Source: Chiloscyllium plagiosum (taxonomy: Eukaryota). From it: a DNA stretch of 64,000 nt. The stretch lies in contig NC_057718.1 of the NCBI RefSeq assembly GCF_004010195.1, positions 64,715,123 to 64,779,122 of the forward strand, given 5' to 3'. The translations under genes and the position numbers were made by a program. The notes below the pieces were generated by a model, which made no database searches, was not told the origin of the DNA, and saw nothing but the letters and a program-made list of their open reading frames with translations. How positions within the stretch are numbered: position 1 is the stretch's first letter; every line of letters starts with the position of its first letter. This document shows, piece after piece, positions 7,287 to 38,384 of the stretch.

Positions 7287-7657
7287 TAGTTTTCATTCTT
7301 GTTAACTCAGCTCTTGGCTGAAACAATTATGCACTGGTGTGAGTTCATTTACCTTGCATACGCTATTATGATTGCAGAAGTAACACTGCTTTACCTATAT
7401 CCCACAGAATATAACTGTGTTGGGCTATTGCTTAAGTAGGTTGTGAGAACTTCCATAATTTTGGCACAAGTCCCTGGATTAGTGAAGAGGACTTTGTAGG
7501 GTTGATTGGGCCTGGTGGAGAAGAGAGGTTAGCTGGGAAAACATTGCAATAATCAATAATCTAAAGGTATGGATGATGGTTTCAGCAGCAAATGTACTGA
7601 CAAACTGTTGATGGTAAGATTTTCCTGATTGCATTTGTTTGTTAACGGTTTGTACAG

Positions 7658-7834
7658 ATTCAGGGAAAAACATAGGAAGCTTGCAAACCAAAGTGATGAC
7701 ACCTTTGATCTTGAAGTTCACATTGTACTTGATGATGTCTTCAAGAATGTTCCAGATAAAGGAGCGCGCACCAGAAAGGGGGTTCTTAATGATCATGTTT
7801 TGTCACTTGTTGAAGCAATAAAGAAAACATGCAG
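7658..7834 (+). pseudogene. chs: Chitin synthase exon A (open, 177 nt, phase 2-2): (R)FREKHRKLANQSDDTFDLEVHIVLDDVFKNVPDKGARTRKGVLNDHVLSLVEAIKKTC(R)
   Basis: Acceptor ggtttgtacag, donor AG|gtatag. Resembles the 'DYYEFE(T/A)HIFFDDAF...VN..V..LV..I' block of animal chitin synthases. Confidence 0.85.
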
Positions 7835-9791
7835 GTATAGTCATTGAAGTTCACACTTTTAGGTATGAGCACCAAACAATGTCCTTAAATTATTCTGGTG
7901 CACAGGAAATGAGTTAACCTCAATATGTGAATCTTTCTCTGTAAAAAAATTGTTGAAATATTTAATTGCAGATGTGAGCTGATAGTGATGACAGGGAAGT
8001 GTACCCTGCAGGCTTTACCAGTCCACTTCAGGTATCTTCAAATTCCTTTTGCCTCCCCCTTTCATTTCCAATATATTTTCTACACTTCAGTTGTGACTAC
8101 TAACCCATAGTTTGTCCTCCCTCAGCAATCTGTCTATGTTGAAGTACTCCCTCTTTCACCCTCACTCCTTGCTGCACTGATCACACTATTGTGTACAAAT
8201 CAAGTGTCCAATCGGTGGTTTCCCATCATGGTCAGTTTCCAACAAGAAACATTAAAAGACTGAGTTTATGAAAAACGGATGGCTATTGAAAGCAAACAAG
8301 AGACCTGTTGTTTGCAACTTGTTCACAGTTTGTGCACAGTTAGATCCTGCTCACAGCTGGTTAATAGAAAGAAAAGTATATGGAGAGGTGTTGGGCCCAG
8401 GATCTTACGGGAAGTCCTGCAAGGCCAGCCAGCTCAAGGTGAGACGAAGCAATGATCAATTAGAGAAGAGTTTTGGAAGCATCAACAGGTGAATATATTT
8501 TAATCAAAAAAGAAAGCAAACCAAAGTGAAACCCACCCACAGCAGCAGGGAATATAAAATAAATTAAAATTTAAAATCCACTCGATGGGAACAAAGTCAT
8601 TTAAAAAATGAGTTCCAATATTATATAGAGAGACCAGACTTTGAGACATGACTTAAAGAGCATTGTTGAGACGACTGAAAGGTAAGCAATAGACATGGTC
8701 ATGCTTTAGATGTGACAGTCATTGCATAACATTTAAGAAGGTAGGGACAAAAAGATTGCAACAAAGTTACTATGATTGATATACCTTAGCCTCAAGATGG
8801 AAGACAGACCCTTAACATATTACAATTAAAGCATGTATTTACATTGTTCAATACTTGAGTATGAACATGTGAACTATAGTAATATGTCACTTGGTTTTAA
8901 AAATGTTAAAGAAAGTAATTTATTTACTTGGCATCTTCTTCCTCCTTCAATTTACTTGAATCAGAGATAACATATCACTTCCAGCTTCACAATTCCACTC
9001 TCTCCGCTCCTGTTCCTGGAATGCTCAGATCAAACAGATGTCTTTGAGACATTTTGATCTTTCTAGCCTTATTATATTCATTCTCAATGCAAACATTTGT
9101 ACCCAAATTGATTGTATGCATTAATAACAGGTATGAACATGGGGGTTTATAGTACATAATATTCTCTGCCACTGTTGACACAGCACAGTGATATTAATAA
9201 GAGCACTTCCACATATAACAGAATGGCATACATATGCATCTCAACTGATATATTTTCAAATATATTACTGATTTCAACTGGATTGACTTTTGCCTTTAGG
9301 GATAGATTAAACCCTGACCTGAAAATGATTTATGGGAACTTCTTTGATAATTGATCTTTTCAAAATACTTCAATGTGTTTGCAGCAATTTAAAAATATTG
9401 ACAAATTTTCTTAATTTTATTAGTAAAATTAGTAACTATTAGTTACAATCGTTAGTAAAATTAATTGAATCAGACCAACCCTGGTAATTGATTAAAATTG
9501 GTTTTACTCTGTTGCCATTGAATATTTACCAAAATGTTGACCTGAATTTTTTTTTCTCTTGTGTGTTGGAAGTTCAGTGAAACGGTACTCATATCCATTG
9601 TTCCTGGTCTTGCCTTCAGTCAAAGTAATTTTCTTGGAATGAACCTCATAAGGTATTCCTTTTAACCAGCACTCTGGGTGAGAGAATGCTTGTAGATCTA
9701 ATCATGTTACTTCAGAGAGGTCTGGACTCAGGCAACACTCTCCCACTGCAACCAGAGCAGGGAGTAGGCAACAGTGGACCCAGTGTCAATA

Positions 9792-10090
9792 GGTGAAAGT
9801 GAAGATTACAGATGCTGGAGGTCAGAGTTGAGAGTGTGGCACTGGAACAGCACAGCAGGTCAGGAAGCATCCGAGGAGCAGGAAAATCGAGGCAAAAGCC
9901 CTTCATCAGGAATGAGCCTGGGAACCTCGGGGTGGAGAGATAAATGGGAGGGGTGTGGGGCTGGGGGGAAGGTAGCTGAAAGTGCGATAGGTGAATGGAG
10001 GTGGTGGTAATGGTTCGAGTCTGTTTGAGGATGCGGCTGAAGAGCTTCAGGGCAGTGGAGATGATCTGGGGGTTGCAGTGAGAATAGGGA
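9792..10090 (-). mobile_element. Penelope-type element fragment
   Basis: Same terminal unit as the other Penelope-type inserts plus adjoining internal sequence; truncated CTGATGAAGGGC motif on -. Confidence 0.65.
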
Positions 10091-10366
10091 CAATATATCT
10101 CAATTGATGACGGGTGGGCAGTAGACACTACCTGTATTATCTGTTATTTAGTTGATTTCAAACATGATTGTGGAAGAGAATTGCCCCCTTCTTATATCTG
10201 TGTCGCAATTTTCATTTTTACCATTTAACCCCTAGCCTGCCAGATATGGCATTGTACTAAGGCAACTGCAAAGTGTCTGTTCAGCAATAAATTAGCTGCT
10301 TCCTTATTTACCAACAAAGTTGGTTTTGACTTGAAAACTTAAAATTAATAGGATTTCTTCTGTTAG

Positions 10367-10534
10367 AGTTTTTCAAGATGACAATCCAATGGTTTCTTCT
10401 AATGAAAATGAAAGAGGCTACAATAACAAAAGTGATCACAACTCCTTAGGAAGGAAAACTGTCTTACATGTTCCTTCATGGAAGTGGTCTACATGTTCAC
10501 CTGAAAGATAAACATCTTACCCAAAAGGTCACAG
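10367..10534 (+). pseudogene. chs: Chitin synthase exon B (disrupted): ...KVITTP*EGKLSYMFLHGSGLHVHLKDKHLTQK/SQ
   Basis: Acceptor ttcttctgttag. Homologous to TPYGGRL..TLP.G..L.VHLKDK..IRHKKRWSQ. TAG at 10447-10449 replaces the Tyr of TPYGG; two frameshifts; KKRW largely deleted before TCACAG|gt. Confidence 0.88.
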
Positions 10535-11612
10535 GTTGTTATGTTTTGTGTTCTTGATGCATCAGAAAAGCAGATTGAAGTGCCATTGAAGTGCCTCAAA
10601 GAACCAGTGACATTTGTAAATTATGTACATTAGCTTATATATAGCCAAGTTCCACAAAACAGCAATGACAGGAATAACAAAATAGTTGGATGTCTTCTGT
10701 ACATCTGCAAAATCTTTTACACCCATCTTTAGTAGGTAGATGGTTTAATGTGTCATCTGTAAGTCAGCACATCTGGCAATGCATCACTAACCCAAGCTCC
10801 CATTACACTGGAATACCATCTAATGATTGCATTAACAAGATGACATTTTCACTTGATGTGTTTTAATTTATTTGTGTTCCTTTTTGTTTTATTGTCAGAA
10901 GTGAGCAGATTTTATGCCACTGTTTTCCAAGACCGACCTGTACTGCTATGTGCTGATCTCAAGAGGGATGATTAATGCAATATGGAAAACTGCTGTGACT
11001 GAAATCTGTGTGCCAGCTTGAATGTCTCTTAAATCAGAGTAAATTAGAACATTTTCTTCCTTTTCCAGAGACATTGTGCAATGGCAGCATTTTAATCTGC
11101 CTCATGATACTTTCAACATTGAATAGATGATTAAGACTCCACTATGCATTGTAGCCAACAGTGGCCATGCAAGCTCATTTGAATGGTGTTTCTTTAAAAA
11201 CTGGCAAAACTCAGATTGTGTTACTTATTGATTAATACTCCTTTTAAAGGCTGCAATGTTGGAAATATTTCTATAGGTGATGTTGGGCATTGAATCATTG
11301 CACCTACATAACAATCAAACCCAGGTCCCTGATTTTTTTTCAGAAAAGTGCTTTTTCTTCCCAGTGACCCTGCTGGCTGAAAAGGAAAATGAGAAAGAGA
11401 ACAAGAAAACAGCAGGGAGATAGTGTGTAGAATGAGAAACAAAATAATGAATGGGGAGTTTGGGTAAGTCCTATATCTGCAATGGTAATTTCACTTTTAT
11501 GCTTAGCGTTTGTCAGTCCCCATCTGTGGAGGGTAGTTTCAGAGCTTCAAAGGATAACATGTAGGGTATTTACACTTATACCTCCATTTTAACTGATGTA
11601 TGTTTTATTTAG

Positions 11613-12054
11613 GTGATGTATATGTACTATCTTCTGGGGTGGAAACTATACAGAAAGCACTTGATTTTGATTACTTACAGTGTGGAAACAGGTCCTTCGG
11701 CCCAACAAGTCCACACCGACCCGCCGAAGCGTAACCCACCCAGACCCATTCCCCTACATTTACCCCATCACCTACCCCTACGGGCAATTTAGCATGGTCA
11801 ATTCACCTAACCTGCACATTTTTGGATTGTGGGAGGAAACCGGAGCACCCCGAGGAAACCCACGCAGACACGGGGAGAATGTGCAAACTCCACACAGAGA
11901 TTCGCCTGAGGCAGGAATTGAACCCGGGTCTCTGGCACTGTGAGGCAACAGTGCTAACCACTATGCCACCGTGTCACCCATGCCACCGTGTCGCCCACTT
12001 ATAGCCCAAAAATTGCATTCAGAGATCTGAGATAAACTTCAGAAACATTTGGAG
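11613..12054 (+). pseudogene. chs: Chitin synthase exon C (VMYMYYLLGWKLYRKH / IAQKLHSEI*DKLQKHLE), split by an HE1 SINE
   Basis: Acceptor tgttttatttag, phase 0, follows ..SQ of exon B; donor GAG|gtgaga. SINE at 11663-11995 flanked by CACTT duplication; in-frame TGA in the distal half. Confidence 0.9.
11663..11995 (-). mobile_element. HE1-type SINE inside chitin synthase exon C
   Basis: CACTT duplication at 11658-11662 and 11996-12000; short duplication of the SINE 5' end. Confidence 0.93.
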
Positions 12055-13659
12055 GTGAGAAAGGTTTTTCAATAAGCTCGTGAAATATGAAAACAATCTG
12101 AATCTCACTCCAATCAATGTCCAATATGAATTAAAAAGTTGTTTAGGTCTGGAGCACAATTTTGATCACTGGCATGATTTCTCTCTGATCTCTAAAACAA
12201 CAAAGAAAAGCCAAGCATATTCATCAGCCCCCATCTCCAGTATTTAAACCTGTCCATCCACAAGTGACATCTTGTTTCATTTGTGAACTGGCAATAAATT
12301 GCAACAGGATAGAAGGCAAAAGACTTTTAGGTGTGTTTATATTGCGTAATTCAAACCCAAGATACCCCCAAGTAATTTACAGAAAACAAAATAGTTGTGA
12401 TGTGCAACCACTGTTTTATTTTATGAAGCATGGCAGCCAGTTGGCACAATGCGAAACTCACCAATACGATAAAGATCGAATAGCTTTATTTTGATATTGA
12501 TTCAAGGATAGAGAACCATAGAAAAAGTGTCATTTCTTTCTCAAAACCATGGCATGGAACCTTGTTACATTCAGCTGAGAAGACAAACAGGGCTTTGATT
12601 TAATGTCTCATCTGCAGGCTCCCTCAGTATTGCATTGGAATGTTCGCCTTGGTCTTTGTTCTCAAGTCTAAATAGAGCTTGAATTCTGAATTTTCTGGGT
12701 CTGAGACAAATGTTGTACATTTTTGCATACTTATGGAGTGAATATAAATGTTATTTATACAGCCAAAGCTTATATCACGAAAGAAATAATACATTTCAAA
12801 AAGCATTTAATCTATTTATGCTTAGCCCTGAGCATTCAGTGACCCATCTGACTAGATATTTATTGCCCTAAAGTTGTTAAACCTGTATTTGTGTCTTCTA
12901 AAGCTGCACTCTCATTTCAAGTTATTGCTTATGTTACAGAGCGGAGGTTGATCCTGCCTCTGTGAGCTAAAAGCCAAAACACCCAAAAGGAGCATCTCTC
13001 CACTTAATTTGTTATAAAATGGAAGTAGTTAAATGAAATGAAATCCTTTCACTCACTCTACAATCAACAACTAACAATTTATTTACCTAACAGTGAACAA
13101 TTTAACAGAACTATTAGCAAACTGACCAATTCCCCTCTAACTACTAACTATTCCCTAATAAAGCAGTCCTAATGGTATGCTGTTTCAATAAAATATAAGT
13201 CACACATGTATAACAAAACAATAGAATTTAGTCTCAAAATTAAGCTGGGATAAGACTTCTGGAATGTTCCTCCTCCTCTCCACTGACCTTCCACCAGGAA
13301 CACCTTTCTCTATCGAATTCTTGGGTCAGGAATATTAGTTAAGAGTGCCAAAGTACATTTTTATATGGTGCTTAATCAGAGAGCTTAAAGATTTGTGAGG
13401 GCCAGACATTTACTCTTCAGTTCGCTCTCACATCAATTTTCAAAAAACCCTCTTCGTATATTCCCTTGATGACTTGTCAATTTTCTTATGATTGTTTTGA
13501 CTACCTGGAACCAATCAGATTTAAATGTAATTGGGTTTTGATATAAAGGGCCTGGTTTAAATTAATTGGCTAATATTCAAGCTGGTTGCCTTAATCATCT
13601 GCAGACCTCACTTTCTCCTTTAATATCAAAACAAGCCTAGGTTGCCAACCACACAGCCA

Positions 13660-14695
13660 ATTAGAGTCATACAGTAATACAACATGGAAACAGGCTCTTC
13701 GGCTCAAATTGGTCCATGCTGACCATGGTTCCCACTCAGCTAGTTCCAATTGCCCGCATTTGGTCCATATCCCTCTAAATTCTTCTCATCCATGTACCTG
13801 TCCAAATGTCTTTTAAATGTTGCTATTGAACCTGCCTCAACCATGGCCTCTAACAGCCCATTCCATATACACATCACTCTCTGTGTGTAGAAGTTGCCTC
13901 TCAGGCCCTTCTTAAATCTTTCCCCTCTCACCTTAAATCCATGCCCTCCAGTTTTCAATTTCCCATCCCTGGGAAAAAGACTATATGCATTCATCCTATC
14001 TATGCCCCTCGTGATTTTATATACTTCAATAAGGTCACCCCTCATTCTCCCATGTTCCATGGAATCAAGTCCTATCCTGGCCAAACTGTCCCTGTAACTC
14101 AGGCCTACTAGTCCAGGCAACATCCTCGTAAACCGTCTTTGCACTCTTTCCAGTTTCGCTATGTCTTTCCTATAACAGGGTGACCAAAACTATATACAAT
14201 ACTCCAGTGCAGCCTCATCAACAACTTATACAACAGTAAAAATTATGTCCCAATTCCTATACTCAATTACTTTGACCAATGAAGGCAGGATGCTAAATGC
14301 ATTCTTCACCACTCTGTCTAGCTGTGATGCTGCTTTCAAAGAACTATGTACTTGTGCTCCTAGATGCCTCTGTTCCCCAATACTCCTCAAGACCTTACCA
14401 TTTGCTGAATAAGTCCTCCCTTGGTTTGACTTTCCAAAGTGCAACACTTCACACTTATCTGTCTTGAACTGCATTTGCCCATCCTCAGCCCACTTCCCCA
14501 TTTGATCGGGATCCCTCTGTAATTTTTGATAACCTTCCTTGCGATCTTAATTTTGTATCATCCACAAACATACTCATCAGGCCTTGTCCATTCACATCCA
14601 GATCATTTCGGTAAATAATAAATAACAAAGGCCTCAGCATCAATCCCTGTGGCACACCACAAGTCACAGGCCTCTAGTCAAAGAAACAACCTTCA
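13660..14695 (-). mobile_element. 5'-truncated CR1 LINE
   Basis: RT fragments GVPQG, VDDTKL, QRRFTRMLPG. Confidence 0.9.
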
Positions 14696-15427
14696 ATTGA
14701 TACATGTGTTTCAATTTCAGAACTGTCTATGCAGCTACAGCTGCTTGCAGACATTATTGTTTGTGAGTCACTGTGCATTTCCAAGTTGCTTTAGCATTGA
14801 GCAGTAGTGTAGTTGAAAAAAAATCACAATTGTACATTTGGTGATTCACCTTGATTCTTGCAGGTGTCTTACAGATATCTTGAAGTGTTAACTAACCTGA
14901 ATTTAGGTGCTGCTATTAATACAGCAAGAGATAGCTTACGTTCCTCAGTCATATCTAATTTTAACCAGAAACTTTTGACATAGATTCAGATGTTTCTGTG
15001 CCCTCATGCCAATAAAAAGGTAGAATAAGTCCTTCATCACATCAAAAGATTTATGGAGCACTGACATTTTAAGAACCTTTTAATTACCAACACACTCCTA
15101 TGAAGATGAATAGTACAGATGACCGCAGAAAGTAAAGTTACTTCTCGTACCATGGAATAGCTAATAATAAACCCGGCTCTCTTGGAAAAAGGAAGAGAAG
15201 GTAATGCCCAAAAGAAAATCCTAATGTAATTTGTTAAAGAACTCCCATTTGGTCTGTGTCCCCTGTCATGTGTTTATTTAAAGTAATATTCTTAGAGTCA
15301 GTCTTACTCTGATGAAATATTGCACATAAATCAATGGGCAGTTCTGTTTGCTTGAATGTTTTATACACAAAATGGCAAGTATACAGTGGAAGATGATCCC
15401 AAAGGAGCTCTGCTTAAGAAACATTTT

Positions 15428-16788
15428 AAAGAAAACTCAATTATAGGATATGGATGGATATTGATCCATCTTCTTTATTGCACATTATGTGATTTGAAAT
15501 TGATGGAAAGTATTGGGAGGTCTTAGTCTGTCAGTTTTCCACAGTGGTTGGCATCATCTGTCCTGTAGGTAAGAAAACAGTCCTGAATGCATTGGTTTCA
15601 ATCTTTCCTCACTTGGCAGGATCGATTTCTGTCTTGGGAGTATTCTTCCTAAATACATGACAAAAATTAACCATGGCCAGCAAAAGCAGGCTCAGCACTT
15701 GGCAAGCTCACTCAAAAACTTTGGAAAGAGCACAGAGCTTGTCACAGAACAAAGATCAAAGTCTCCCTGGAATTGTTTCATATATCACTTCATTATTGGA
15801 GCAAAACATGGCATCACAAAGTAGCTAGAAACATTTCAGCTACCCTCTCTCTGAGATATATTTGCAACATCTTAAATCTGAATCTGTTCTGGAACCAAAA
15901 TATTAACTCTGTTCTCTGCTTACAAGGGCTCAGCATTGCTGGGTCAGTCAAGTGGTTTGTATGAAAGATTCCTGGATACTCTCCCTTCAGTTGAGCAGTA
16001 ACCCACATCACAGGATATGCCTAACTTAGATATAAAGACAATCTGAAACCCAATCTCTATTTGCAAGCTGGATCCCAATACATGGAATAAAAATTAACCT
16101 TAGACAGACCCAAATGGAGAAATCACTATCATCTAGTGATTTTGACTCTGAGAAGGACACAGTCATGTTATTTCATGATATATAAGCCTGTGCAAAGCCA
16201 ATGCCCTCATCCATAAGTTCACCTCTATTGTTCCATTTGGTCTGTAAACTGATCTTTATGCTTTGCTGAGCATTCAACAGTTGAAACGATGGAAGAATTC
16301 CACACTCACCATTCCATTTTACAGTCTCTAGATCATATGCAAATAATGTAAACGCAAATGAGTAGTTGACCCTTACAAACCAGGAAAATCCAAGGTTCAC
16401 TGGACAGTCTGTGTTAATTTTATTGACATACCAAACCTAGTTGGATACATTCGACCATGTGCAGCTCCTACATTTGGATATCTTTGAAGTCTATCAAATA
16501 GAAGAGTTAAAGCTGATGGCTAGAATTCTGTGTCTCCATCTAGAGCTAAAATGTATGTGTTCATTTTCTCTGTCTACAAAATACAAAAGAGAACAGCATG
16601 AATAAATGCAAATGTGCTTACTTCTCTTTCCTTTTGGGAAGCCTGTGTTCACACAGAAGTTTGCTTCTGTAGACACCAGTAGAACAAATGATCTAGTGTT
16701 GAGTTTTAATCATTTATTCTTTGGGTGGCAACCCAAATTCAGTGACAGCCTACATCTTGAAAATCAAGACCTACTTCAAAATTTAAAG
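15428..16788 (+). pseudogene. Possible heavily eroded catalytic-core exons of the chitin synthase (~15428-15568, ~15785-15880, ~16606-16788)
   Basis: Weak in-register resemblances in the expected order: KENS..MDG..GIICPVG|gtaag vs KENT..LDGD..GRIHP(T/V)G; HYWSKTWHHKVARNI vs EYAVGHWLQKTAEHV; MCLLLFPFGKPV..T..FNH..W.P..DLL vs LCTLLLQQGWRV..T..YNQRRRW.P..DLL. Could be chance. Confidence 0.3.
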
Positions 16789-17019
16789 GTGTAGTCAGCT
16801 CAATTTAATGCAGCATTGGGAGAGTGCTTCACCATTCGACCTGGTACTTTACAGTTGAAATGTTAAAGCGAGATCCCATCAGCCTTCTGCTTAAAATGAT
16901 CGGATAATACTATGTGTAGAAGAACAATGGAGTTCACCCACACAATATTAATGAAAATACCAACAAAATCAGATTACCTGATATGTTGTCTCACTGTTGT
17001 TTCTGTATATAAAATAACT

Positions 17020-17940
17020 ATACATTAATATGGAAAAGTGTGAGGTGATTCACTTTGGAAGGAACAACAGGAATGCAGAATACTGGGCTAATGGTAAGAT
17101 TCTTGGTAGTGGAGATGAGTAGAGAGATCTGTGTCCATGTACATGGAACCCTGAAAGTTGTCACCCATGCTGATAGGGTTGTTAAGAAGGCAGCTGAAAC
17201 TTTATTGCTGGTTTCGGGCACATGCCCTTCTTCAGAAACGTCGAATCTTCTGTTCCCTAGATGCTGCCTGACCTGCTGTGCTGTTCCAGCAATAAAGTTT
17301 CAGCTTTGATCTCCAGCGTCTGCAGACCTCACTTTCTCCTTGTTAAGAAGGCATACAATGTGTAGCTTTTATTAGCAGAGGGATTGAGTTTTGAAGCCAC
17401 AAGGCCATGCTGCAGCTGTACAAAACTCTGGTGCGGCCGCACTTGGAGTATAGCGTACAGTTCTGGTCACTGCATTCTAGGAAGGATGTGAAATCTTTAG
17501 AAAGTGTTCAGCAGAGATTAATTAGGATGTTGCCTGGCATTGAGGGAAAGTCTTGTGAGGAAAGGCTGAGGGACTTGAGGTTGTTTTTATTCGAGAGCAG
17601 AAGGTTGAGAGGTGACATAATTGAAACATATAAGATTATTAGAGGGTGGACTGTGAGAGACATTTTTCCTTGGATGGGGATGGCGAGCATGAGAGGACAT
17701 AGCTTTAAAATGTGGGGTGATAGATATAGGAAAGCTGGCAGAGGTAGTTTCTTTACTCAGAGCAGTAAGGATATGGAATGCCCTGCCTGCAACAGTAGTA
17801 GACTCACCAACTTTAAGGGCATTTAAATGGTCATTGGATAAACATATGGACATAAATGGAATAGCATAGAATAGATTCCATGAGTCAGCACAACATTGAG
17901 GGCTGAAGGGCCTGTACTGCGCTGTAATGTTCTATGTTCT
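17020..17940 (+). mobile_element. 5'-truncated CR1 LINE interrupted by a Penelope-type insert
   Basis: LYKTLVRPHLEY motif; tail aatgttctatgttct. Confidence 0.9.
17193..17339. mobile_element. Penelope-type hairpin insert with 14-bp TSD and hammerhead core on -
   Basis: TTGTTAAGAAGGCA at 17179-17192 and 17340-17353; inverted arms gctgaaactttattgctgg / ccagcaataaagtttcagc; CTGAAGA-AGGGC-ATGT-GCCC-GAAAC on -. Confidence 0.8.
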
Positions 17941-19385
17941 AAGCTAATCATCTGTCAGTTACCAAGAAGGTCCTGATAGCTTATACTATGTGAACAGATA
18001 GAGTAGGAACAGATTTAGCTGTGTGCCTCTGTGTTTCACAGAGGACATAAACTCATGTGTGAAGGACAGGCACTCCAGCAAGAAACTGAAGTGCCACTAA
18101 CACTGATTATTTCATGCCCTGGCTTGACTCAATACTTTCAGATGAAGACCAGTGGAATATTGAAAATTGTAAGGAAATTTTTCAGCAATCTTTTGGACGA
18201 GCCTGAGCTTCTGGAAGCTGTAGACCATTAGGCTGGATTCCTTGTTCAGGCAGGCCCAGAGCCTGGACTCCCAGCAGCAGCAGCAGGGCAACCTGGCAGC
18301 AGGAGATCTGGAGCCCGAATTCTTGGCAGTGGTGGTGGCAGTGCGGGCAAGTGGCAGCAGAGCTGGAGTCTCCTGGGGTATCGGCGTGAACTTTACTGTT
18401 CCCAGAACGGGAAACCTTGAGGACTGAAACAGTTTGCAGAGACCACACAAGCCCTGATGCAGTGCTTGAGACTCAGTTTGAACTCAGTTTGAAGGTGAAG
18501 TCTTATTTAAGTAATTTATTTTCATCCTATTCTAATTCAAAATGGTGCAGATATATCTTGTCAAGATATATGTGACAATAAATATAAATATTATCAAAAT
18601 AATACAAATGAACTGAATCAAAACCCGATCAAAAATGGGTCTTAAATCTTGGCATGAGTAAAACCTTCCAAGATTATTAATCCGGACAGCACATTTACTT
18701 GCCTCACTGGTAGCACTCTTCCTCCGAGTCAGGAGGTGATGGTTTAGGTCCCCTCCACATAATGCTGGTTAAAACCACAGTGCAGTGCTGAGAAGGTGCT
18801 GCTCTGCAGAGGGTGTCATCTGTTGACTGAGGAGCTGAGGCTGTACTCAAGTGGACATAATGAATTCCATCACATTTGTTGAAGATGATAGAGCAAAGTC
18901 CTTGTTAAAGGATTAACAATTCCTTTAAGCTTTTCTTCTGTAATTTTTGGGAAGTATTGTTGTTAAAGTTTGTTATTCTAACTTTTTCTAATTAACTGTC
19001 ATAAAGATCAAAACTAAATAAAGGTAAATGTTTTTTAAAATTTCTCCTGAATTACAGTACAATCCTGCTGCTCCAACTAGTGTGAACAGTTTGAAAAACC
19101 AGTTACATATTAGATGTGGATTCTTCAAATAAATTGCACACAAAGGAAGAACCGATTGGAGAAATGATTATTTACTAAGTCTATTCTAGTCAGTAATCAC
19201 ACTGACAATCTTATATGTGCATTGTAAGGCAGACATGTGCAGGTTTATGTATATAAAAGGCAGATTATAGAAAAGACAGTGTGCAAAAATGTATAAGTGA
19301 ATCTGTGCAAATTGCAATACTAAAGGAAAAATTGCTTAAACATGTTTTCTCAGCACTCAATAATTGTCCCCATCTGATTTTACAG

Positions 19386-19563
19386 CTGTCGTGATATATG
19401 TATTTCACTGGAATCCTATTGACGCTTTTGGTATTTTCAACAGCCCCTACGTTCTACATAATTGCCAGTTTTGTGACAAAACCAGACACAGATAAATGTG
19501 CGAGCATTTCTAAGCTTGCTGTATGCCTTTTTCTCATGGCTTCAGCCTTTTTCACTATAATAG
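19386..19563 (+). pseudogene. chs: Chitin synthase post-catalytic TM exon: (A)VVIYVFHWNPI/TLLVFSTAPTFYIIASFVTKPDTDKCASISKLAVCLFLMASAFFTII(G)
   Basis: Acceptor tgattttacag, donor G|gtgaga. Length 178 nt, i.e. one +1 frameshift for a phase 1-1 exon. Resembles the 'PP.FY..VCF.TKPDTQ...FLM.A.F.IIG' TM block. Confidence 0.8.
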
Positions 19564-21064
19564 GTGAGAGCACAATTTTTATTATTCTTCCCCTTAATCT
19601 TCCATTTGTTTCCATTATATTATTTCATTTTGTGCCTTTTAATGAGTCCAGAATGCCATTTCTCTCCTCCCTAGAGAGCACATTCCGATCAGGATCTCAG
19701 GCTACGAGGCCACTTTGACAATAGTCCAATAACTTGTTGCATAAAATATGGAATCTCCAAGAAGCTGCTACACCACACATTCTTGAAAAAAGTGATATTT
19801 CATTTTCTAAATAGCATCTGGAACAAAAAGAACAAAGAGCAATGCAGCTTAGGAATAGGGCCTTCAGGCTACCAGGAATGCACCAACATATGATGACTTT
19901 CTAAACTAAATCATTTTGCCTCAATGCTGACTGTATTCCTCTACAGGTAGTTCTCCAATAACAGCGTTTATTAAACACGATTTGTCTGTGATGCAATTTG
20001 TGAATTGCTAAACTTTTATTATTAAGCGAACTCCACTGAAACGAAATTCTCATCCCGATGTGTCAATGCGCGGAGGACTGGATTCCACATTGGCATCAGG
20101 TGATCAGTCATGAAGAGCTTCGTGAAAGGTATTGTGAAATGTTTGTGCTTATGGATATGGAAACACATTGTGAAAATGTCTCCACAGCCTGAGGACAAGA
20201 AACTGGGAGCAATACATTAATTTAAAAGCTTAAAGAGTTGAGATAAGAGTGAAGTTTCACTGGAATTGACTCACAGTAAAAGCACAGTGTTGGGGAGCAG
20301 TTTGAAACTTGGCTTTGTTTATATTAAGAGCTTTTTTTTCTCTCTCTTCCTGTTTAAAAAAAATATGTTTAATTGTTTAAAAAATATCTGCAGGCTCATG
20401 CGAATCTGTTTCAATGACTAACCACTATGGTAACCAACTGCAAAAAAAAATGCCAGAACATGGTTAGGTACCTAGTCAGGGTGGTCAGAGTCAGGAAACT
20501 CTGCACATAGTGGGTGAGGGCTAGAAAGGTGGGTTGCACACTTTCACTTTTGGTGCATGTGTGGAGATGTCCTGAGGGGGTGTGGAGGCTGTGCAGAACA
20601 GATTCAGGGTTAGTCAGGGCCAGATATTAGTGAGGATGAGAGTAAGCAGGGAAAATGTTGCAAGAAATGGTGGGTACAGTGGCAGAGAATAAGTATGAGG
20701 TATCAACGAGAAGATGGTGGCATTTTCACTGGCAGAGTGGAGAAGGGCACTGATCATCTTCACACATTCTGTGCACCCCTTCAGAGGGTTGAGACTGCAC
20801 TGGCCTGGATGGTAGCTCTGGTTCAGGTTGACGTGGTTCCTGTAGAATGGCATCTTCTGTTGGCCTGAGAGAACAGGATGTCTTGCCTTTCCATTACCCA
20901 TCTTAGACTGCTATTGTTTGTGTTAGGCTAGCTACTATTTTTATTTTTATTTTTACTAATATTTCTGGTGGTTTGCCCCTAACCCTGTTTTTCCCATAGA
21001 CTCCATTATTTCTATTGCATTATTTTGTATAACATGGCATCGCACGGGAACACAACTACGGCAT

Positions 21065-21530: not shown

Positions 21531-24500
21531 TAGGACAACCATTGAGTGTATCTGCAGTCTTACATCAGTCTGAGATTTTTTTTTGCTTTCTTGGTGACAG
21601 TAATCAAAGTTAGGGCCAATATTAAGAACACAAAGGAGGGAGGGTCAGGAGTTTTGTTTCTTGCATTTTATGCTCGGAATAATTAAATATGAAAGAGGCT
21701 AATAGAATTCAGACATCTACAGCAGTTTGAAAAAAATCATAAATATTTAGAGGAAGTCATTGAGCCCTACAGCAAGGAGACAGATCCTTTGGCCCCAAAC
21801 TGGTCCATGCCAACCAAAATGTCCACCAATGCTAACCTCATTGCCCTGCACTTCGCTCATACCCTTCTAAACCTTTTCTATCCATGTACTTGTCCAAATT
21901 ATTTTTAAATGTTAATGTATCCACCTCAACCAATTCTGCTGGCAGCTAATTCCATATACATATTACTCTCTATGTAAAAAAATTTTAAAAATTGCCTCTT
22001 AATTTCCCTTTTATTCTTTCCACTCTAACCTTAAACTCACACCCTCTACTCAGGGATTCCCCAACCCCGGGAAAAAGACCGAGTGCATTCACTCTATCCG
22101 TGCCTCTAATGATCTTATGCACTTCTATAAGATTCCCCCCATCCCCAAGACTCCTAAGCTCTAAAGAAAAATGTCCTAGCTTGCCCGACCCCTCCTTATA
22201 ACTCAGACCGTTGAGCGCAAGCAACATTCTTGTAAATTTTTTGTGCACTGTTTCCGGTTTAGTAACATCCTTCCTGTAGCAAGGTGACCAAAGCTGAACA
22301 TTCTATATGCAGCCTCACCAATGCCCTGTCCAACTGCAACATAACTTCCCAACTTCTGTACTCAATGCCCTGATGAAGGCCATTGTGCCAAAAGCCTTCT
22401 TCATTGCCCTGTCTACCTGTGACTCCATTTTAAAAAAAAACTGTGAACCTGAACTCCAAGGTCCCTCTGTTCCACTACACACCTGAAGGCCTTTATATTT
22501 ACCATGAAACTCCTATCTTGATTTGACTTTCCAAAATGCAAAACCTTGCACTTATCTATATTAAGCTCCATTTGCCATTTCTCCGCCCACTTCCCTAGTT
22601 GATCAAGATCCTGCAACAATTTCCGATAACCTTCCTCATTGTCCATAATACCCACTAATTTGGTATTGTTATGACATGAGCTAAACTCCCCTCCCACTAA
22701 TTTGAAACAGCAACACAGAAAAGATTTAGCCCATGCAGTAATCTGTGAAAATTCAAGAAGCAAAGATTTATCCCAGAGGTCACTATTTAAAGTAAAAATT
22801 AACAAATTTATTCTTTAAGTCCAACAGAGAATATTAAAACCAACAGCTATTTACAACTCCTTTCTCTTAAACCTATCTTTTACCTCCCATTCTACAATGC
22901 TAGTCTGATAAATCCCCCAATTAAGATTTACCAAAAAATTCAAATTTCAAAACCAGCCAGTTAGGGCCTTCTCTTTGTATCTTCCTCTGTCTTCTTTTCT
23001 TCTTTTGGATTCTGTTTCACAGGTCATTGATAGATAAAGTTACCTTTTTAAGAGAGCTATTCTGCAGGCAGTCTGCATATGTTGGTGCTTGGCAGTTCTC
23101 CTCAAACAGTTCAATTTTTTTTTTGGTTTTACACCCCAAAGCATCGGATTATTTCATTGGTTTTTATATTGTCAAAATACCAAATTCAAATTTGATTGAA
23201 GTTTAGTATCTTGGGGCATAATTAAACTGTTTGGCTAAATTTGCATTTGTTTTTGTCTCATAGCAACCCAGGTATTGGTAGCTGCTGGATTAAATGTTAC
23301 ATTGTAAATTTTCCAGAACTCTGTGTGCTTGCTAAGTTCTTTAATTTCTTAAAGGTCCAGTACCTCTCTACACTTTCATAACACCTCTCCCCCAAAAGAA
23401 AAGAACCACCATAATGAAAAGATGGCTTCATTTCTTTCTATTCTTTAAACACATTAGCATAGCTAATCTAACTTTAATCTAAATTCACCATAACTTCTTC
23501 CTATATATTATGTATATGTATACACTGGATAAATGCAAATCTCATCTAAACATTATTAATTAAAATCCACGATAACGCAACTGTGATTATATTCTTATGA
23601 TTGGCAACATGTACAATTTTTAAATTAAACATCTGTAACATAAGACTCCAATGAAGTAGTCTCATATTCTTGTCTTTAAAACATTCTAAGAAGGTAAGCA
23701 GATTGTGATCCATGTACGCAAACATCTCTGACACATTGGTTGTGACATAAATATTATAATGTTGTAAGGCCAATACCAAACTCAATAGTTCTTTTTCAAT
23801 CGTGGAGTATTTCTTCTCGTGGCTGTTAAGTTTCTTTGAAAAGTAACCAATTGACAATTCAATCCCATCCCCACCCTCCTGAAGCAGTACACCAATATGT
23901 TCACATGACATACCAGATACCTTTTTTTCTCTATCTGGCATCTTTTCTAAATAGTTCACCTGACTCAACCTTTTCTCAATTTGATAGGGACCACTAAACC
24001 TGGCTTTGAAGAGATCTCCTATCATTGGTAACTGTACTATCATGTTATCCCCTCAGGAAAGTGTCCAAGTCTCAGAGCTTTTATCTGCCACCTGCTTCAT
24101 TCTACACTGTGCCCTCTTTAGGTGCTGTTTAGCTAACTCATCTACTCAATTTAGTTTCTCCCTCACCTCCAATACATAATCTAAGTGTGAGATCTCTGAC
24201 TGTGGTCCTGTCAATTTTTCTTTAATTACTTTCAAAGGGCCTCTCACTTCATGCCCGAGTATTAACTTGAAGGGAGTGAACTGAGTAGATTCATTTGGGG
24301 CATCCCTAATGGCAAACAATATGAATGGGGTACCTTTATCCCAATCATTTGGGTAATCCTGACAGTACACTCTCAACATGGTCTTCAAAGTCTGGTGCCA
24401 CCTTTCTAAAGCTCCCTGGGATTCAGGAGGATATGCACTGGATTTAAAGTGCTGTTTGCTGAAGCTATACATAACCTCCTTAAACAGCCTAGCAGTAAAA

Positions 24501-26579
24501 TTTGACCCTTGATTCAACTGAATCTCTATGAGTAGCTCATACTGTGTGAGAAAGCTACTAACACCTCTATCACCTTTATTGCCTTGATACTCTGTAACGG
24601 AATTGCCTCCGGAAATCTGGTAGACACATCCATTATGGTTAACAAGTACTGGTTCCTATTTTTAGTTCTTGGGAGGGGACCTACACAAACAATTCTAATC
24701 TGTGTGAAAGGTTCTTCAAATATGGGAGTTGGCAACAAAGCTGCTGGTTTTATTAACGCCTGTGGCTTACCTACCATTTGGCATGAATGACACGTACAGC
24801 AAAAGGTAATCAATCCTTGTGTGCATTCCAGGCCAATAAAAATGTTTTTGTACCTTAGCCTGAGTCTTTCGTACCCCTAGGTGATATCCTGCAGGTAGCT
24901 CATGTGCTATCTGTAACACCTCCTGTCTGTATGCTACTGGCAACACAATCTGGTGCACTTCGGCCCATTCCTCCTCTGCACTAACCAGCCATGGTCTCCA
25001 TTTCCACCTTAGGATTCTATCTTTCAGCTAGTAAACCTCCAGAATATAATCTGCCTCCTTTTCAGAGTACGTATCCATATATATATAACTTTTATTGTCT
25101 TGTCTTGCTGTTGCAAGTCCCTCAGCCTTTTAGGACTAAACACTTCTGTCTGACCCTCTGCCTGTTCAGGTTTTTCCTGCACCATTATGTCAAACAAGGT
25201 ATCAGCTAACTGAACCTCAACTCCCTCATCTTTCTCTCTACTTTTCACTTTGTGCTGTGACTTATGATAGTGGTATCTGGTTACTACACAGTGTGGGAAA
25301 ATCCCAGGATTTCTATTTTAACTCCTCAGTTTCTTGGTCTTCCTTGGGCTTCTCCACAACAGGGGATGTCACTCCACCAAATCATTCCCAAGAATAAACT
25401 GAATTCCTGCAACTGATACTCTGTCAATCACTCCCGTTGTCATTTCCCCAGTCTTAAGTTGGCACTCCAACCTGATCTTACATAGGGGAATGTCTATCTA
25501 TCCCACAAATTACTACACTCACAGGTAGCAGATCAGAAAGAGTGCATAGGCGCTCATCTCTTACTATCAGCGACTGGTTAGATCCTCTATCTCTCAAAAT
25601 TATGACTTCTTGTCCTTCTCCCCTGGTGTTTCTGAGTAAACTTTACTCACACAGGTGAATTCTTTGTAGAGATCAATACTAACTCAATACACATCCCCTG
25701 CCTAGGCTGTGCAGTCAAATGCAGTTCCTCGGCTCTTCTTGGGGTCTCCTTTACTACCATCATTCATGTCACTGGCTTAGCTTCTTCTCCCACAGTGTCT
25801 TTCTTGAACAACCAGCACTGTGACTTTATGTGTCCCACTTTACCACAGTGGAAACCATTCACCTCCTTTCCACCCTCTTGGGCTTCTTTTTTATCCTGTG
25901 GTAAATTCTTACCAGTGCTCACTACTCTTGGTTTTGTAGTGTAGAGTCCCCTTCTCCCAACTTCTATCGCTCAGGATGAAATTCTGGCCGGAAGCTTTAC
26001 TTATGCACCAACATGTATTCATCTGCTAATTCTGCTTCCCTTCTCACGTTCTGAACTTTCTGTTCCTCCACATGAATTCTTACCATCTCTGGAAGTGAAT
26101 TTTTAAACTCCTCCAGCAGAATAGTCTCTATTAGAGCCACAAAGGTCTTATCTACTTTCAAAGCACGCACTCATCTATCAAAATGATTATGTTTAATTCT
26201 TTTGAATGCAAAGAAGTCTGACCTGGTACCTTCTTTATGTTTCTGAACTGCTGTCTATATGCTTCTGGTACCAATTCATAAACACTTAAAATAACCTGTT
26301 TAACCTTTTCTTAACCTCTTGATCTCACACCTGACAGTGCAGCAAACACCTCACTAGCTCTGCCAACCAGTTTAGTCTGAACTAGCATTACCCATAAATC
26401 CTCAGACCACTCCATCTGCCTAGACAATTTTTCAAATGAAATAAAGAAGGCTTCAGCATCTTTCTCATCACAATGTGGCAGAGTTTTGATATATTTGTAT
26501 ATATCACTATCTTCTCTTTTAAACTCCATCCATTAACTTAACTTTGCTGATTAAGTCACAGCTACTCAAGTTCAAATTC

Positions 26580-26670
26580 TCTCTCTTTTTGCTCAGTTGA
26601 GAACCTTCTCTCTCTGTCCCACTCTCTGTCCCTCTCTCTCTTCCTTCTCCCTCTCTTTGCTCAGCTAAGA

Positions 26671-26709
<39 letters not shown>

Positions 26710-26712
26710 CTC
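26580..26712. repeat. (CT)n-rich tract inside the Gypsy gag region
   Basis: Direct observation; reads as Glu/Arg-rich on -. Confidence 0.85.
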
Positions 26713-27355
26713 TTCTAACTCCATTTTCCTCGATTGTAATTTCAGTTTTTCTACCTTTATTGGACTTGTCTGTTTCTCTGACACATCTAATTATTTGAGA
26801 CTTTTGCCCTTGGTTAAACTTATTTGCTAATTCTGAAAGTATGAACCTTTTTCTTTCCTTCTAAACTTTCTTGGCAAATTTGAGAATCATTTTCAAATCC
26901 CAGAACCTCTTTAGCAATTTTAAGAGCCATTTCTCTCACTTTTAATGTAATCAACCACAAGTCACCTAAATTAAACAAATTGTCTCACCTATGTGTTATT
27001 TAAAGATCTAACCTACAAGTATTTACATCTACTGAGATTTTTTGTAGCCCAGCCCCAAATCTATTCAAATCTGTCTAAAACTGTTCAAATCCTGGACAAA
27101 AGCCCCCAAATCTGTGATGACACGGGGTAAGCACCCTTCCTAATTTGAAGCAGCAACACAGAAAAGATTTATTCCGTGCTGTAATCTGTGAACATTCGAG
27201 AGGCAAGGACTTATCCAAAGGTCACTATTTAAAGCAAAAATTAACAACTTTATTCTTTAAGTCCAACAAAGAATGTTAAAACCAACAGCTATTTACAACT
27301 CCTTTATCTTAAACCTATCTTTTATCTCCCACTCGACAATACTAGTCTGATAAAT

Positions 27356-29437: not shown

Positions 29438-31778
29438 TAAATCCCCCAATTAAGATTTACCAGAAAATTCAAATTTCAAAACCAGCCAGTTCTCGAATCT
29501 TCTCTTTGTATCTTCCTCAGGCTTCTTTTCTTCTTATTAGAGTTTCTGTTTCATAGGTCATTGATAGGTAAAGGTACTTTTAAGAGAACTATTCTGCAGA
29601 CATTCTGCATATGGTGGTGGCTTGGCAGTTCTCCTCCAACTGTTCAATTTTTTGGGGGGTTTTATACCCCAAAGCATCGGATCGTTTCATTGGTTTTAAT
29701 TTTGTGAAAATACTAAATTCGAACTTGATTAGAGTTTAGCATAGTGGGGCATAATTTAAACTGGCCAAACTTGAATTTGTTTTTGTCTCATTGCAACCCA
29801 GGTACTGCTAGCTGCTGGACCACATGTTACATTATAACCTCTTCAGCACTGTGTGCTTGCTAAGTCCTTCAACTCTCTTAAAGGTATAATACCTCTCTAC
29901 ACCTTCATAACAGTATCATCAGCAAGCTTACTAATCATGCCTTGTACATTCATATCCACATCATTGATGTAATTAAGAAGTAGCAATGGGCCTAGCACCG
30001 ACTTCTGAGACACTCCACTAGTCACAGATCTCCAGTCCGACAAGCATCTTTCCATATTACCTTGTTCTTCCTACCATCAAGCCAATTGTGTATCCAATTT
30101 GCCAGATCCTAGATTCCATGTGATCTGACCTTCCAGAGCAGCCTTCCATGAGGAACCTTATCAAAGGCCTTACTGAAATCCATACAGACCACATATACCC
30201 CCCTGCCTTAATCAATGTTCCTGGTCAATTCATCAAAAAACTTTAACAAATTTGTGAAGCATGATTTCCCTTGCACAAAGCCATGCTGACTACTCCTAAT
30301 CAAACCCTGTCTTTCCAAATGCATGTATGTCTTTCAGAATCTTCTCATGTAACTTACCTACCACAGATGTTAGGCTTACTGGTCCATAGTTTGTGCATTT
30401 TTCTTTGCAGCCCTCCTTGAATAAAGGCACAACATTCGCTATCCTCCAGTCTTCCTGGACCTCAAGCTTGGCTAACGATGATGCAAAAATATCAGCCAGG
30501 GTCCCCACAATTTCTTCTCTAGCCTCTTGCAGTATTCTTGGATATATTTGATCAGGACCAGGAGATTTCTCCACCTTCATAAATTCTAATACATCCAACA
30601 CCTCCTCTATGATATGGACTGTCCCCAAGATATGATCACTAACTTTCCCGAGCTCCCAAGTCTTCATGTCTTTCTCCACGGTAAACGCAGTGGAGAAATA
30701 TTCATTGAGGACCTCGCCCATCTTCTGCGGTTCTACACATACTTGTCCACTTTGGTCCTTGAGAGGCCTTGTTCTCCCTCTAGTTATACATTTTCCATTT
30801 CATGTACTTGAAGAACCTCCTTGGATTCATCATAGTCTTCTCAGCCAAGGCTATCTCATGCCCCCTTTTTCACCTTCCTGATTTCCTTCTTCAGTAAACT
30901 CCTGTATCCCCTATATACGTACAGGAATTCCCTTGATCCCAGCTGCATGTACCTGAGCTATGCTTCCTCCTTTTTTTCTGGTCAAAACTTCAGTATCTCT
31001 TGTCCAAATGAAGGTATTAGGGATAGCTGCAAGGTAAATTGAGATCATTAGAGAGGTCCAGTGTGGAATGAGCACAATGGGCTGGATTTGTCTTTATGTT
31101 GGAATTTCTAATTACTGTCGTGAAGAAAAGTGTATCTCAGGCGAAGCAATTGTGGAGCACAGAAATTCTTCCTGAATTTCAGTCCAGTTAAGATTTGTAA
31201 TTAGCCAAAGTTATGCGTGTGATTCTCTTGCCTATCCTTATATCCACGGTTGGGTTTGGGATGAGATACGAGAGTTTTTGTAGGATACCTTTGGGTTACT
31301 GGCCATCATTCCCTTCAATCGACCTACTGAAAACAGGTTCAGATATTAAACTTGGCCTTCTGATGTCTTAATTGAGCAAACATAATGAATTTCACAAATC
31401 ATTATGATTTGTTTTTTGTTAGTGGAAACAATTTTTATTTTAATTTCAGAGAGCTCTTTTTGGGACCTATAACTCCACTGTATCTCTCCAATTTCCTGGA
31501 ATGTCCTCAAAGTAGGCTTCTCTACATTATGGTCTATCACCTTGACAATTCAGAATGACTCTGTACATGGGATTTGGGATGAGGTTGATATCCTCAGCAG
31601 AAGGTGACTGAAATTCTGTCTAACTGGCCTTCCCAACCCCACCAGAGGTGGGGGTCTCCAGGATTTACTGCCAGGTGATTCCAGGAATTCAGAACAATTC
31701 ATGGGCCCATTTAGGTAGTGGTTACAGAAATATCGTCAAAACATATTAAGTCTTGTGAAAATGCAACACTATATTGGT

Positions 31779-32060
31779 GGGTGGCACGGTGGCACAGTGG
31801 TTAGCACTGCTGCCTTGCAGCACCAGAGACCCAGGTTCAATTCCCACCTCAGGCGTCTGACTGTGTGGAGTTTGCACGTTCTCCCCGTGTCTGCGTAGGT
31901 TTCCTCCCACAGTCCAAAGATGTGCAGGTCAGGTGAATTGGCCATGCTAAATTGCCCGTAGTGTTAGCTGTAGGGGTATGGGTGGGTTGTGCTTCAGCGG
32001 GTTGGTGTGGACTTGTTGGGCCGAAGGGCCTGTTTCCACACTGTAAGTAATCTAATCTAT
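31779..32060 (+). mobile_element. HE1-type SINE
   Basis: tRNA-like head with A/B boxes (tggcacagtgg, ggttcaattcc); taatctaatc tail. Confidence 0.92.
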
Positions 32061-32104
32061 AATAGGAAAGTTTTAAAAATGGTAAATATAATGGTTAAGC
32101 AGCT

Positions 32105-32602
32105 TAGAACATTGAACATCACAGCACAGTACAGGCCCTTCGGCCCTCAATGTTGCGTCAATCTATAGAACCAAACTGAAGCCCATTTATCCTACACTTT
32201 TACATTTTCATCTATATGTTTATCCAATGACAATTTAAATGCCCTTAAAGTTGGCGAATCTACTACTTTTGCAGGCAATGTTTTCCATGCCTCTACTACT
32301 ACCCCCTGACATCTTTCCTATATCCATCAGCACTCAGCTTAAAACTATGTCCCCTATGTCCCATCACCATCCAAGGAAAAAGGCTCTCACTCTCCGCCCT
32401 ATCTAACCCTCTGATTATCTTGTATATCTCAATTAAGTCACCTCTCAACCTTCTTCTCTCTAACGAAAACAGCCCCAAGTCCCTCAGCATTTCCTCATGC
32501 GACCTTCCCTCCTTACCAGGTAACATCCTAGTAATTCTCCTCTGAACCCTTTCCAAAGCATCCACATCCTTCCTGTAATGCAGTGACCAGAACTGTACAC
32601 AA
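32105..32602 (-). mobile_element. CR1 3' fragment
   Basis: CVQFWSLHYRKDVDALERVQRR. Confidence 0.9.
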
Positions 32603-34106
32603 TTAAACAACATCTTCCTGCTGACCACTCCATTGACAGGCTTAAGGTTACTGCAGGCTTTTGTTGGTACAGATTCAGTTGGTGTAGAACAAGATGTTAC
32701 ATTTTTTACAGGGACAATAAGAGGAATAGCCTGTTTACCCACAAGTATTGGGCACCTCATTATATAGTATGATAAACCTGAGAGCATAAAACATGGATTG
32801 ACCAGGAAGATTTGAGAATGCAAACTGCGAAGAGATTTGAGATAAGGAAACTATACCCCATGGAAAAGAGAAGAGGATTGGGACTTTTAATGGAGTTTTC
32901 CAAAATTATGAAATTTTGACAGAGTGAATCTGGAAAAATTATTTGTCTGTTTAGGAAGCCACATGGTATAATATATTGATTAAATAAAAAATGAGTAATG
33001 AGTGAGATTAGGAGAAAAGTCATTACAGAGGTGTAGAACATGGCACAATGACTGCTAGAGATCGAGATCATTGAGCTTTTCAAACAAAAAGTGGATAAAC
33101 ATTCAAAGAGATACAGCCTTATGGGATGAGAACAAGTCAATCAGAATAATGTGGCTCAGTAGGCACACTGCATTCCGCATCAGAAGGTTATGGGTTCAAA
33201 CCTCACTTGAGGATGATAATTCAATGCAGTACTAAGAAGTACTGCAATGTTAAATGCACTTTTGAAATATCTCTTGTCTGCTTCCTAAAGTAAACAGCAG
33301 AGATCAGTGGCGTTCCTCAGCAGGAATGATTTGCTGTTCCTTTTTGCTGATCAATATTTATCCTTGACTGACAGACTTGGCTCCCTCTCAGGTATAGAAT
33401 ATTCTAGAGAAAGCCATAATTCCAGGGGCAGATTGAGAATGTGCTACAGTTTTAGTAGGAGGGTTAGAGGAAGTGTGTGGATCATTTGTGAATGGTTGGT
33501 GAGCTCTTGGGAATATCTGACAGAGAACGTGGTTTTAAACCTGCTCTCCTAGGATAGTTTACGTTTTTGATCTCAGGGAGGGAGTGATCTTACGTGTCCA
33601 GTTCCCAATCCAGGCATTGATCCTTGTTCCAGGAAGTTTGCTTGTGGTGTGGAGTTAATAGTATGCCCTTGAATTTTGTGGAGATGTCTGATGGCTCGGA
33701 CAGAAGGTAATGTGAGTTGAGCGAAAAGATGTCTGCTCCTCTTCTTCTATAAACTGTGTTGAAAGGCACTTAATTATTTTACGTCTTTACCTCCCTTGGA
33801 TTTCCCAAGGCTGGTAGAACCTAACCATCTAGGGTAAAATCTGTAAGATAAGATAACCATGAGGTATCATGCTTCACTACATTACTTCTGAACTTCGTCA
33901 CCCCAATCCCTCCTCTATTATTAAATAGAAGTGGGTGGCTTGAAGACAGACTGGGATTAGGTTTGAGCTTTTATACCCTTCCACATCCCACTACTGCCAA
34001 ACTGATCCTTCTTTGTGGTTGTGTTTACTGCTTTTGAGTAAACACGTAGCTATCTTGTAACTGATTCATTAACATCAACATTATTTAATGTCTTTTGCTT
34101 TTACAG

Positions 34107-34502
34107 GTATGTTATATACAGCAGGAACTAATGTCTCTCCAGCTGTAATTTTTCTTACTTTGATGTGTCTTGTTTTTTTATCGTGGCACTACTAGAACCC
34201 ATTAAATTGCCACTTATGGTGTATGGCCCACTCTACATGACAGGTATTCCTGCTGGATGCTTATCCTGATTATATGTACACTTGTAAATTTGAATGTCAC
34301 ATTTTGGGGCACAAGAGAGACTGTAATGAAGATTCAAAGTAAAGATGGAGAAGATAATAGCTCATCAATTCAAGCAAAAATCCACAAGCAGTGGAAATGC
34401 AACTCCTGCTTAATTCAATGTGCAGTTCATAACTGGACTGTAGGAAGTCATACTGTAGGAAACTCCAGAAAGATATTTTCTATTGAGATATTTTTCATTT
34501 GA
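34107..34502 (+). pseudogene. chs: Chitin synthase exon carrying the WGTRE motif (34305-34319); 3' boundary uncertain
   Basis: Acceptor tcttttgcttttacag, phase 1, joins the 19563 donor. Reads GMLYTAGTNVSPAVIFLTLMCLVF/IVALLEPIKLPLMVYGPLYMTGIPAG/LILIICTLVNLNVTFWGTRET with two frameshifts. Confidence 0.9.
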
Positions 34503-38323: not shown

Positions 38324-38384
38324 ACTATTGTATTTTCCAGGTTGGATCTCTAACTTACAGACAAACACAGTGTCAAGAACATAC

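Follow-up and report, generated by a model that had tools for sequence, protein, structure and literature searches.

A probable elasmobranch chitin synthase pseudogene with an inverted exon and an absent catalytic core

The 64-kb window of Chiloscyllium plagiosum contig NC_057718.1 considered here, searched on both strands over its whole length, holds the remains of a chitin synthase (CHS) gene. Very probably this is an intron-retaining CHS pseudogene of an elasmobranch, likely a shark, in which one exon (D) is inverted, the exons for the QKFEY, EDR and QRRRW motifs are absent and other exons carry lesions, so that no enzyme product is to be expected. With the stingray CHS of Hemitrygon akajei (XP_072907201.1, P0003, whose residue numbering is used throughout) as tblastn query, eleven exon remnants are found between 7658 and 45556, collinear with residues 494–1217, and eight of them score 42–79 bits as against 28.5 bits for the best of 20 shuffled windows. 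The original prediction had recognised five splice-bounded segments (exons A, B, C, H and I), which align to CHS at 71, 44, 42, 42 and 57 bits respectively, and their motifs HLKDK (10498), MYMYYLLG (11616), TKPDT (19476) and WGTRE (34305) are on the plus strand where they had been placed. All five start after an AG and the first four end before a GT, but they are not consecutive, about 210 codons being missing between exons C and H, and the gene does not stop at 34502 as had been thought but continues to about 45556 with five more 3' exon remnants (J, J2, K, L and N). An acceptor AG precedes every one of the eleven remnants and a GT donor is found at seven of the ten internal ends (A, B, C, D, H, J and J2), the failures being exon K, which reads AT, and exons I and L, which lack GT.

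The most telling lesions, the inverted exon D and the deleted core, were beyond the list first drawn up for this locus. Exon D, which carries the LDGD motif, lies between exons C and H and reads on the minus strand from 16573 to 16432; it has its own polypyrimidine tract, and both AG and GT are intact. It covers residues 648–695 (TYILALDGD...GRxxP), gives 79 bits in tblastn (E 5e-17) with 36 of 47 residues identical, and is interrupted by a TAG at 16522–16520; no copy on the plus strand is present in the window. The interval 12055–19385, where residues 648–857 would be expected, contains the inverted exon D alone, and of the approximately 210 codons missing from the plus strand 47 are inverted, while the other 162 or so occur nowhere in the window. 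Exons for approximately residues 696–857 (QKFEY, EDR and QRRRW) were sought on both strands of the window by a frameshift-tolerant scan with seven vertebrate references and none was found, the best scores being 37–56 when reversed-query controls gave 36–48 and simulated exons decayed by 10–20%, the positive control, gave 91–322. One stretch, KLNPSANKSYTLY at 17355–17394, was considered as a missing exon and rejected as a chance match, since it scores 44–49 against the controls' 36–48 and lies within a copy of a long interspersed nuclear element (LINE). The EDR and QRRRW motifs are described as common to all CHS in the available text of PMC10234404; here both are absent along with QKFEY, LDGD is inverted and then followed by TAG, and WGTRE is present but downstream of frameshifts.

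The breakpoints of the inversion fall in the ranges 12057–16431 and about 16600–19365. The strand skew of 12056–16431 is opposite to that of two flanks (z −2.1 against +1.4 and +2.1), a weak sign of inversion. That the point lesions are real and the inversion and missing core a local mis-assembly seems unlikely: the breakpoints are not located and many LINE pieces occupy the interval between exons C and H, both of which would suit such an error, yet there is no N gap in 12055–19385 or elsewhere in the gene (the sole N run of the window, 43 nt at 51145–51187, lies within a LINE copy outside it), the missing exons are nowhere in the 64 kb, exon D has coherent flanks and its own stop, and the ancient decay of the gene allows time for a rearrangement. 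Recombination between oppositely oriented LINE pieces flanking exon D was considered as a route and found unsupported, only 113 nt at 70% being in common. Separately, an exact 23-nt direct duplicate stands on both sides of exon D (13598–13620 and 17319–17341). At 17.3 kb it opens a short element (about 150 nt) that lies within a LINE and shows what resembles a target-site duplication, at 13.6 kb nothing beyond the first 23 nt is present, and three further copies differ by two to four bases; the pair may be a junction scar or else a young repeat that has been truncated.

Exon A (7658–7834, residues 494–553) has an open frame and intact AG and GT, gives 71 bits (E 8e-15) and is identical at 34 of 58 residues to the CHS of the sevengill shark Heptranchias perlo. 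Exon B (10367–10534, residues 554–612, TPYGG...HLKDK) contains TAG at 10447, a net +1 near 10410–10416 and an 11-nt deletion near 10525, and so the stop and two frameshifts first read there are borne out by codon-level alignment. In exon C (11613–12054, residues 613–647, VMYMYYLLGWK), bounded by AG and GT, the predicted TGA (12028) and frameshift are likewise found, the latter a −1 at the insertion of a repeat resembling a short interspersed nuclear element (SINE) that splits the exon. This plus-strand repeat (11661–11998, 338 nt) has four near-full-length counterparts in the window, to which it is 79–88% identical, and so is not a fresh insertion; its label comes from its length, its repetition and the original prediction, with no library match. 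Identity in exon C is 16/16 upstream of the SINE and 9/18 downstream.

On the far side of the missing core, exon H (19386–19563, residues 858–917, TKPDT, with AG and GT) is frameshifted as predicted by +1 near 19427, but bears three shifts rather than one, the others being −2 at 19488 and +2 at 19528. Exon I (34107–34470, residues 918 to about 1040, WGTRE) has the two frameshifts expected of it, both −1 (near 34172–34178 and at 34258), and matches with a combined E of 9e-18 and 71 of 118 residues identical to Heptranchias. Its tail is weaker, with a likely extra shift near 34431–34443, a TAG at 34456 and no GT, details which depend on the frameshift penalty. Exons J (36469–36526, approximately residues 1037–1056, AG/GT, 10/19 identical to Heptranchias, 24.6 bits and so within the shuffled range) and J2 (38341–38408, approximately residues 1056–1077, AG/GT, phases matching its neighbours, score 33–35 against a control of 28) are followed by exon K (39904–40014, residues 1078–1114), which has an open frame, a donor AT in place of GT and 54 bits (E 1e-9, 24/37 identical). 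Exon L (40579–40724, residues 1115–1162) carries +2 at 40678 and gives 42 bits; its similarity ends abruptly and residues 1163–1186 were not found. The last, exon N (45463–45556, residues 1186–1217), gives 27.7 bits, within the shuffled range, and 60 against a control of 47 in the frameshift-tolerant scan; it closes with TAA at 45554, perhaps close to where the gene originally ended. All of these, exon D apart, are on the plus strand.

Taken as firm are those lesions seen in codon-level alignment to the stingray CHS, with exons A, B, D, H, I and J aligned to Heptranchias also. They amount to three stops (TAG 10447, TGA 12028 and TAG 16522), nine frameshifts (two in B, one in C, three in H, two in I and one in L), one SINE-like insertion and one GT to AT donor change, and the frameshifts in B, H and I come at near-identical positions with both references. 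Less firm are the features at the end of exon I (the extra shift, TAG 34456 and the lack of a donor), the abrupt end of exon L at 40724 and the TAA at 45554.

Identification of the gene depended upon related proteins as queries. Pfam on single segments of the window gave no CHS family, exons I and B gave no match in word-based protein searches, exon B gave a single match in the PDB that is put down to chance, the ESM Atlas gave nothing above 0.75 with exon A, a motif scan of viral contigs gave zero and Rfam on the window gave zero matches. A CHS hidden Markov model built from 34 frames of at least 700 amino acids, drawn from 112 metagenome-contig loci found by a degenerate motif scan, recovers the five known segments and three more, its top match being on the minus strand at 16570–16436 (E 9e-14). 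Exon D as query led in turn to the stingray CHS P0003 at 80% identity (E 1.6e-12, one protein among four candidates), which is itself matched by Pfam Chitin_synth_2 (E 1e-25). The exon D-led retrieval yielded 367 representative proteins at E ≤0.001, and the names looked up for 17 of 20 representatives were all vertebrate, 15 with chitin synthase in the cluster.

Identity of the remnant is 62% to Heptranchias perlo (354 columns), 57% to stingrays (435 columns), 43% to Rhinoraja, 40–44% to catshark and 35–42% to amphibians and bony fishes. The main tree, made with a mixture model from 17 rows and 536 columns (11 rows of an earlier 28-row tree being left out), places it in a clade with Heptranchias, Hemitrygon and Rhinoraja at 100/100 (100 in the 28-row tree) and as sister to Heptranchias at 85/85 (95 in the 28-row tree), with an end branch of 0.42 that is about three times longer than the 0.13 of Heptranchias. 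The closest relative, the chs-2-like protein of Heptranchias perlo (XP_067845654.1, P0008), has LDGD, QKFEY, EDR, QRRRW and WGTRE in one open frame, unlike the remnant, although the database model seems short at both ends. The stingray CHS of Hemitrygon akajei and Hypanus sabinus (XP_059841336.1) belong to the same clade and their residue order is the exon order of the remnant; the stingray protein is full-length in contrast, at 1249 amino acids with every motif present. Placement nearest to a shark gene, with introns and splice sites kept and disabling lesions throughout, agrees with the intron-retaining CHS pseudogene originally proposed, and it is on the tree that the ascription to a shark rests.

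The two Scyliorhinus torazame (catshark) CHS models, scyTo_0004829 and scyTo_0004830, have HLKDK, MYMYYLLG and LDGD in common with the remnant but form another clade at 100/100, and so elasmobranchs, judged from these sequences, have at least two CHS lineages. With 17 rows the deepest vertebrate branches do not resolve, and since monophyly of the chondrichthyan sequences survives an approximately unbiased (AU) test (p-AU 0.077), the two lineages are left undated. The available text of PMC10216261 lists two CHS genes for the whale shark (a row of Table S1), that of PMC10234404 describes the loss of CHS in mammals as well as CHS motifs and gut expression, and in what is available of the main text of the catshark paper PMC11979771 the word 'chitin' occurs zero times. 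No shark CHS pseudogene and no two-clade elasmobranch CHS was found in the literature searched, and subscription papers and closed supplements may contain such. Birth and death of CHS paralogues in sharks, as first suggested, is plausible given at least two elasmobranch clades and the two genes listed for the whale shark, and what was lost may have been either a duplicate or the only copy of this lineage.

Could the minus-strand exon D be a stray piece of a second, opposite CHS copy, the plus-strand gene having lost residues 648–857 by one deletion? CHS genes can be neighbours, as the consecutive locus tags of the two catshark models, on a contig of equal length, indicate. This account is nevertheless very unlikely, because no other minus-strand exon is seen in the window, exon D is precisely the one that should follow exon C, and its DGDTEF signature, otherwise limited to rows of the Heptranchias, stingray and skate clade, is that of the same clade as the rest of the gene.

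Several features of the relatives are recorded in their own right. QRRRW-DPSKIAN occurs in P0003, P0004, P0005, P0008 and P0012 and GPST(M/L)AN takes its place in Xenopus, Amia and sturgeon; the difference adjoins the product-binding motif and could mark altered enzyme properties. In the remnant the exon that would bear this stretch is missing from the window. The neighbouring catshark models P0015 and P0163 both lack the EDR/QRRRW region, through draft-assembly gaps or as further broken copies. The Rhinoraja longicauda model (P0012, XP_078261868.1) lacks WGTRE, has a long branch and is placed outside stingrays and sharks against the species tree, possibly as a third paralogue or a fast-evolving copy. 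The Mobula birostris CHS, of the clade of the remnant, is annotated as two pieces (P0004 and P0006), and the first 84 or so residues of its C-terminal piece resemble LINE sequence of the window (35 bits), whether through misannotation or as another instance of decay.

The death of the gene is likely old. Fifteen of 86 columns that are invariant in seven other vertebrate CHS are changed in the remnant, and simulated neutral change gives a mean of 12.9 changed columns at 8% and 15.9 at 10%, with 15 inside the 95% range for 6–15%; the stop count, three to four over about 540 codons, agrees with 6–8% neutral change. The passages available of PMC10587355 describe sharks as slow-evolving and give no per-year rate. 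Eight sequencing runs of one organism (five samples, two studies) contain 0.59–0.91 of the sampled words of 7400–13000, which indicates no more than the presence of this DNA in several samples; nine runs of an organism B contain 0.30–0.39 and three of an organism C 0.26–0.27. As a lead only, the shares of organisms B and C would imply some 3–4% divergence and hint at a death of the gene before their split. No RNA data sets are listed with words of 7400–13000, which is no evidence either way. That the gene is intact and every lesion a sequencing error can scarcely be credited: at least twelve small lesions, a 338-nt repeat in an exon, a branch some three times longer and changes at invariant residues go beyond base-calling error, and several samples contain most words of 7400–13000.

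A number of observations weigh against the pseudogene reading or against parts of it. Exons J, J2 and N are individually weak and their inclusion rests on order, splice sites and phase, while residues 1–493, which would include the CATMWHxT motif and the N-terminal membrane domain, have no match in the window and may lie upstream of position 1. The inversion and the single lesions could still be assembly errors, and one frameshift lies in a T run. Exon D is not flanked by any clear pair of inverted repeats, the breakpoints are not pinpointed, and the strand skew is inconsistent along the gene (z −0.9 for 33000–45460). That this genome has another, intact CHS is a supposition and not an observation. 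At 57 conserved columns the remnant has 13 changes, the Rhinoraja skate model 11, Heptranchias 4 and Hemitrygon 2, and the skate model keeps EDR and QRRRW despite its 11; since it has changed nearly as much as the remnant, rapid evolution while the gene was still functional may have made the estimate of decay too high.

For the pseudogene a route can be proposed. A rearrangement spanning a few kilobases, whether single or in two steps, would have flipped exon D and removed the next exons. With exon C thereafter spliced to exon H, the entire active site would be bypassed and the reading frame would shift, phase 0 being joined to phase 1. With the lapse of selection, substitutions, small insertions and deletions, the SINE and retroelements would have accumulated. 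Inversion and deletion of the catalytic core likely made the loss irreversible, and may have come before or after the point lesions. A second, catshark-like CHS lineage likely persists elsewhere in the genome, as the catshark models and the whale shark table suggest, and would make this copy dispensable. Elsewhere, ENAM in toothless mammals is reportedly an intron-retaining pseudogene that marks the loss of a trait. Pseudogenes of that type have the exon-intron layout, stops, frameshifts and splice-site loss in common with the remnant, which differs in its inverted exon and lost active-site exons, and for which no trait loss is shown.

Other repeats lie in and around the gene. The intron of 14.5 kb that separates exons H and I contains remnants of a long terminal repeat (LTR) retrotransposon (23546–26860, minus strand; RT_RNaseH at E 5e-19 and a weak Integrase_p58_C), which we take to be Gypsy-like, and a second LTR retrotransposon remnant is found at 62270–63610 on the plus strand (RT_RNaseH_2 and Integrase_H2C2). 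In a LINE remnant at 2600–3160 (minus strand) an endonuclease piece is preceded by a frame resembling GDSL esterases (OSK, Lipase_GDSL_2), presumably a CR1-type ORF1. The labels CR1, SINE and Gypsy have Pfam domain matches and self-similarity as their only backing. No neighbouring gene was found, Pfam on 90 non-repeat frames outside the CHS gene giving four retroelement-type matches and one faint KA1.

Pseudogenes within known families are ordinary as events go. Vertebrate chitin synthases are a recent discovery, and new with respect to the literature searched is the presence of at least two elasmobranch CHS lineages, one dead in this shark-like genome and whole in stingrays. The inverted exon and deleted active site also make a clear case of what gene models would miss. 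In the available text of 10.1101/687301 the CHS of the little skate (LeCHS) is described as expressed in the canals of the ampullae of Lorenzini, and a chondrichthyan gene survey is deferred; LeCHS is an elasmobranch CHS like the remnant, but an expressed one, and may or may not be its orthologue.

It may be asked whether the elasmobranch-specific lineage (QRRRW-DPSKIAN type) makes the chitin of the electrosensory gel and was long ago destroyed in a whole shark group by inversion and deletion at the active site. This is improbable, if not without points in its favour: the retrieved skate CHS (Rhinoraja) falls within the clade of the remnant, skate CHS is expressed in ampullary canals (10.1101/687301, available text) and a second CHS piece is absent from the window. 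On the other hand the catshark has CHS models of another clade and its ampullae stain for chitin according to the same partial source, the whale shark has two listed CHS genes (PMC10216261, available part), and the little skate probe may belong to either clade. Were it true, such sharks would be natural knock-outs, with ampullae that lack chitin or use the other CHS lineage, and would directly test whether chitin matters for electroreception. With the pseudogene as preferred here, the locus allows a comparison of which CHS lineage is expressed in ampullae, gut or skin, and of whether ampullary chitin survives the loss.

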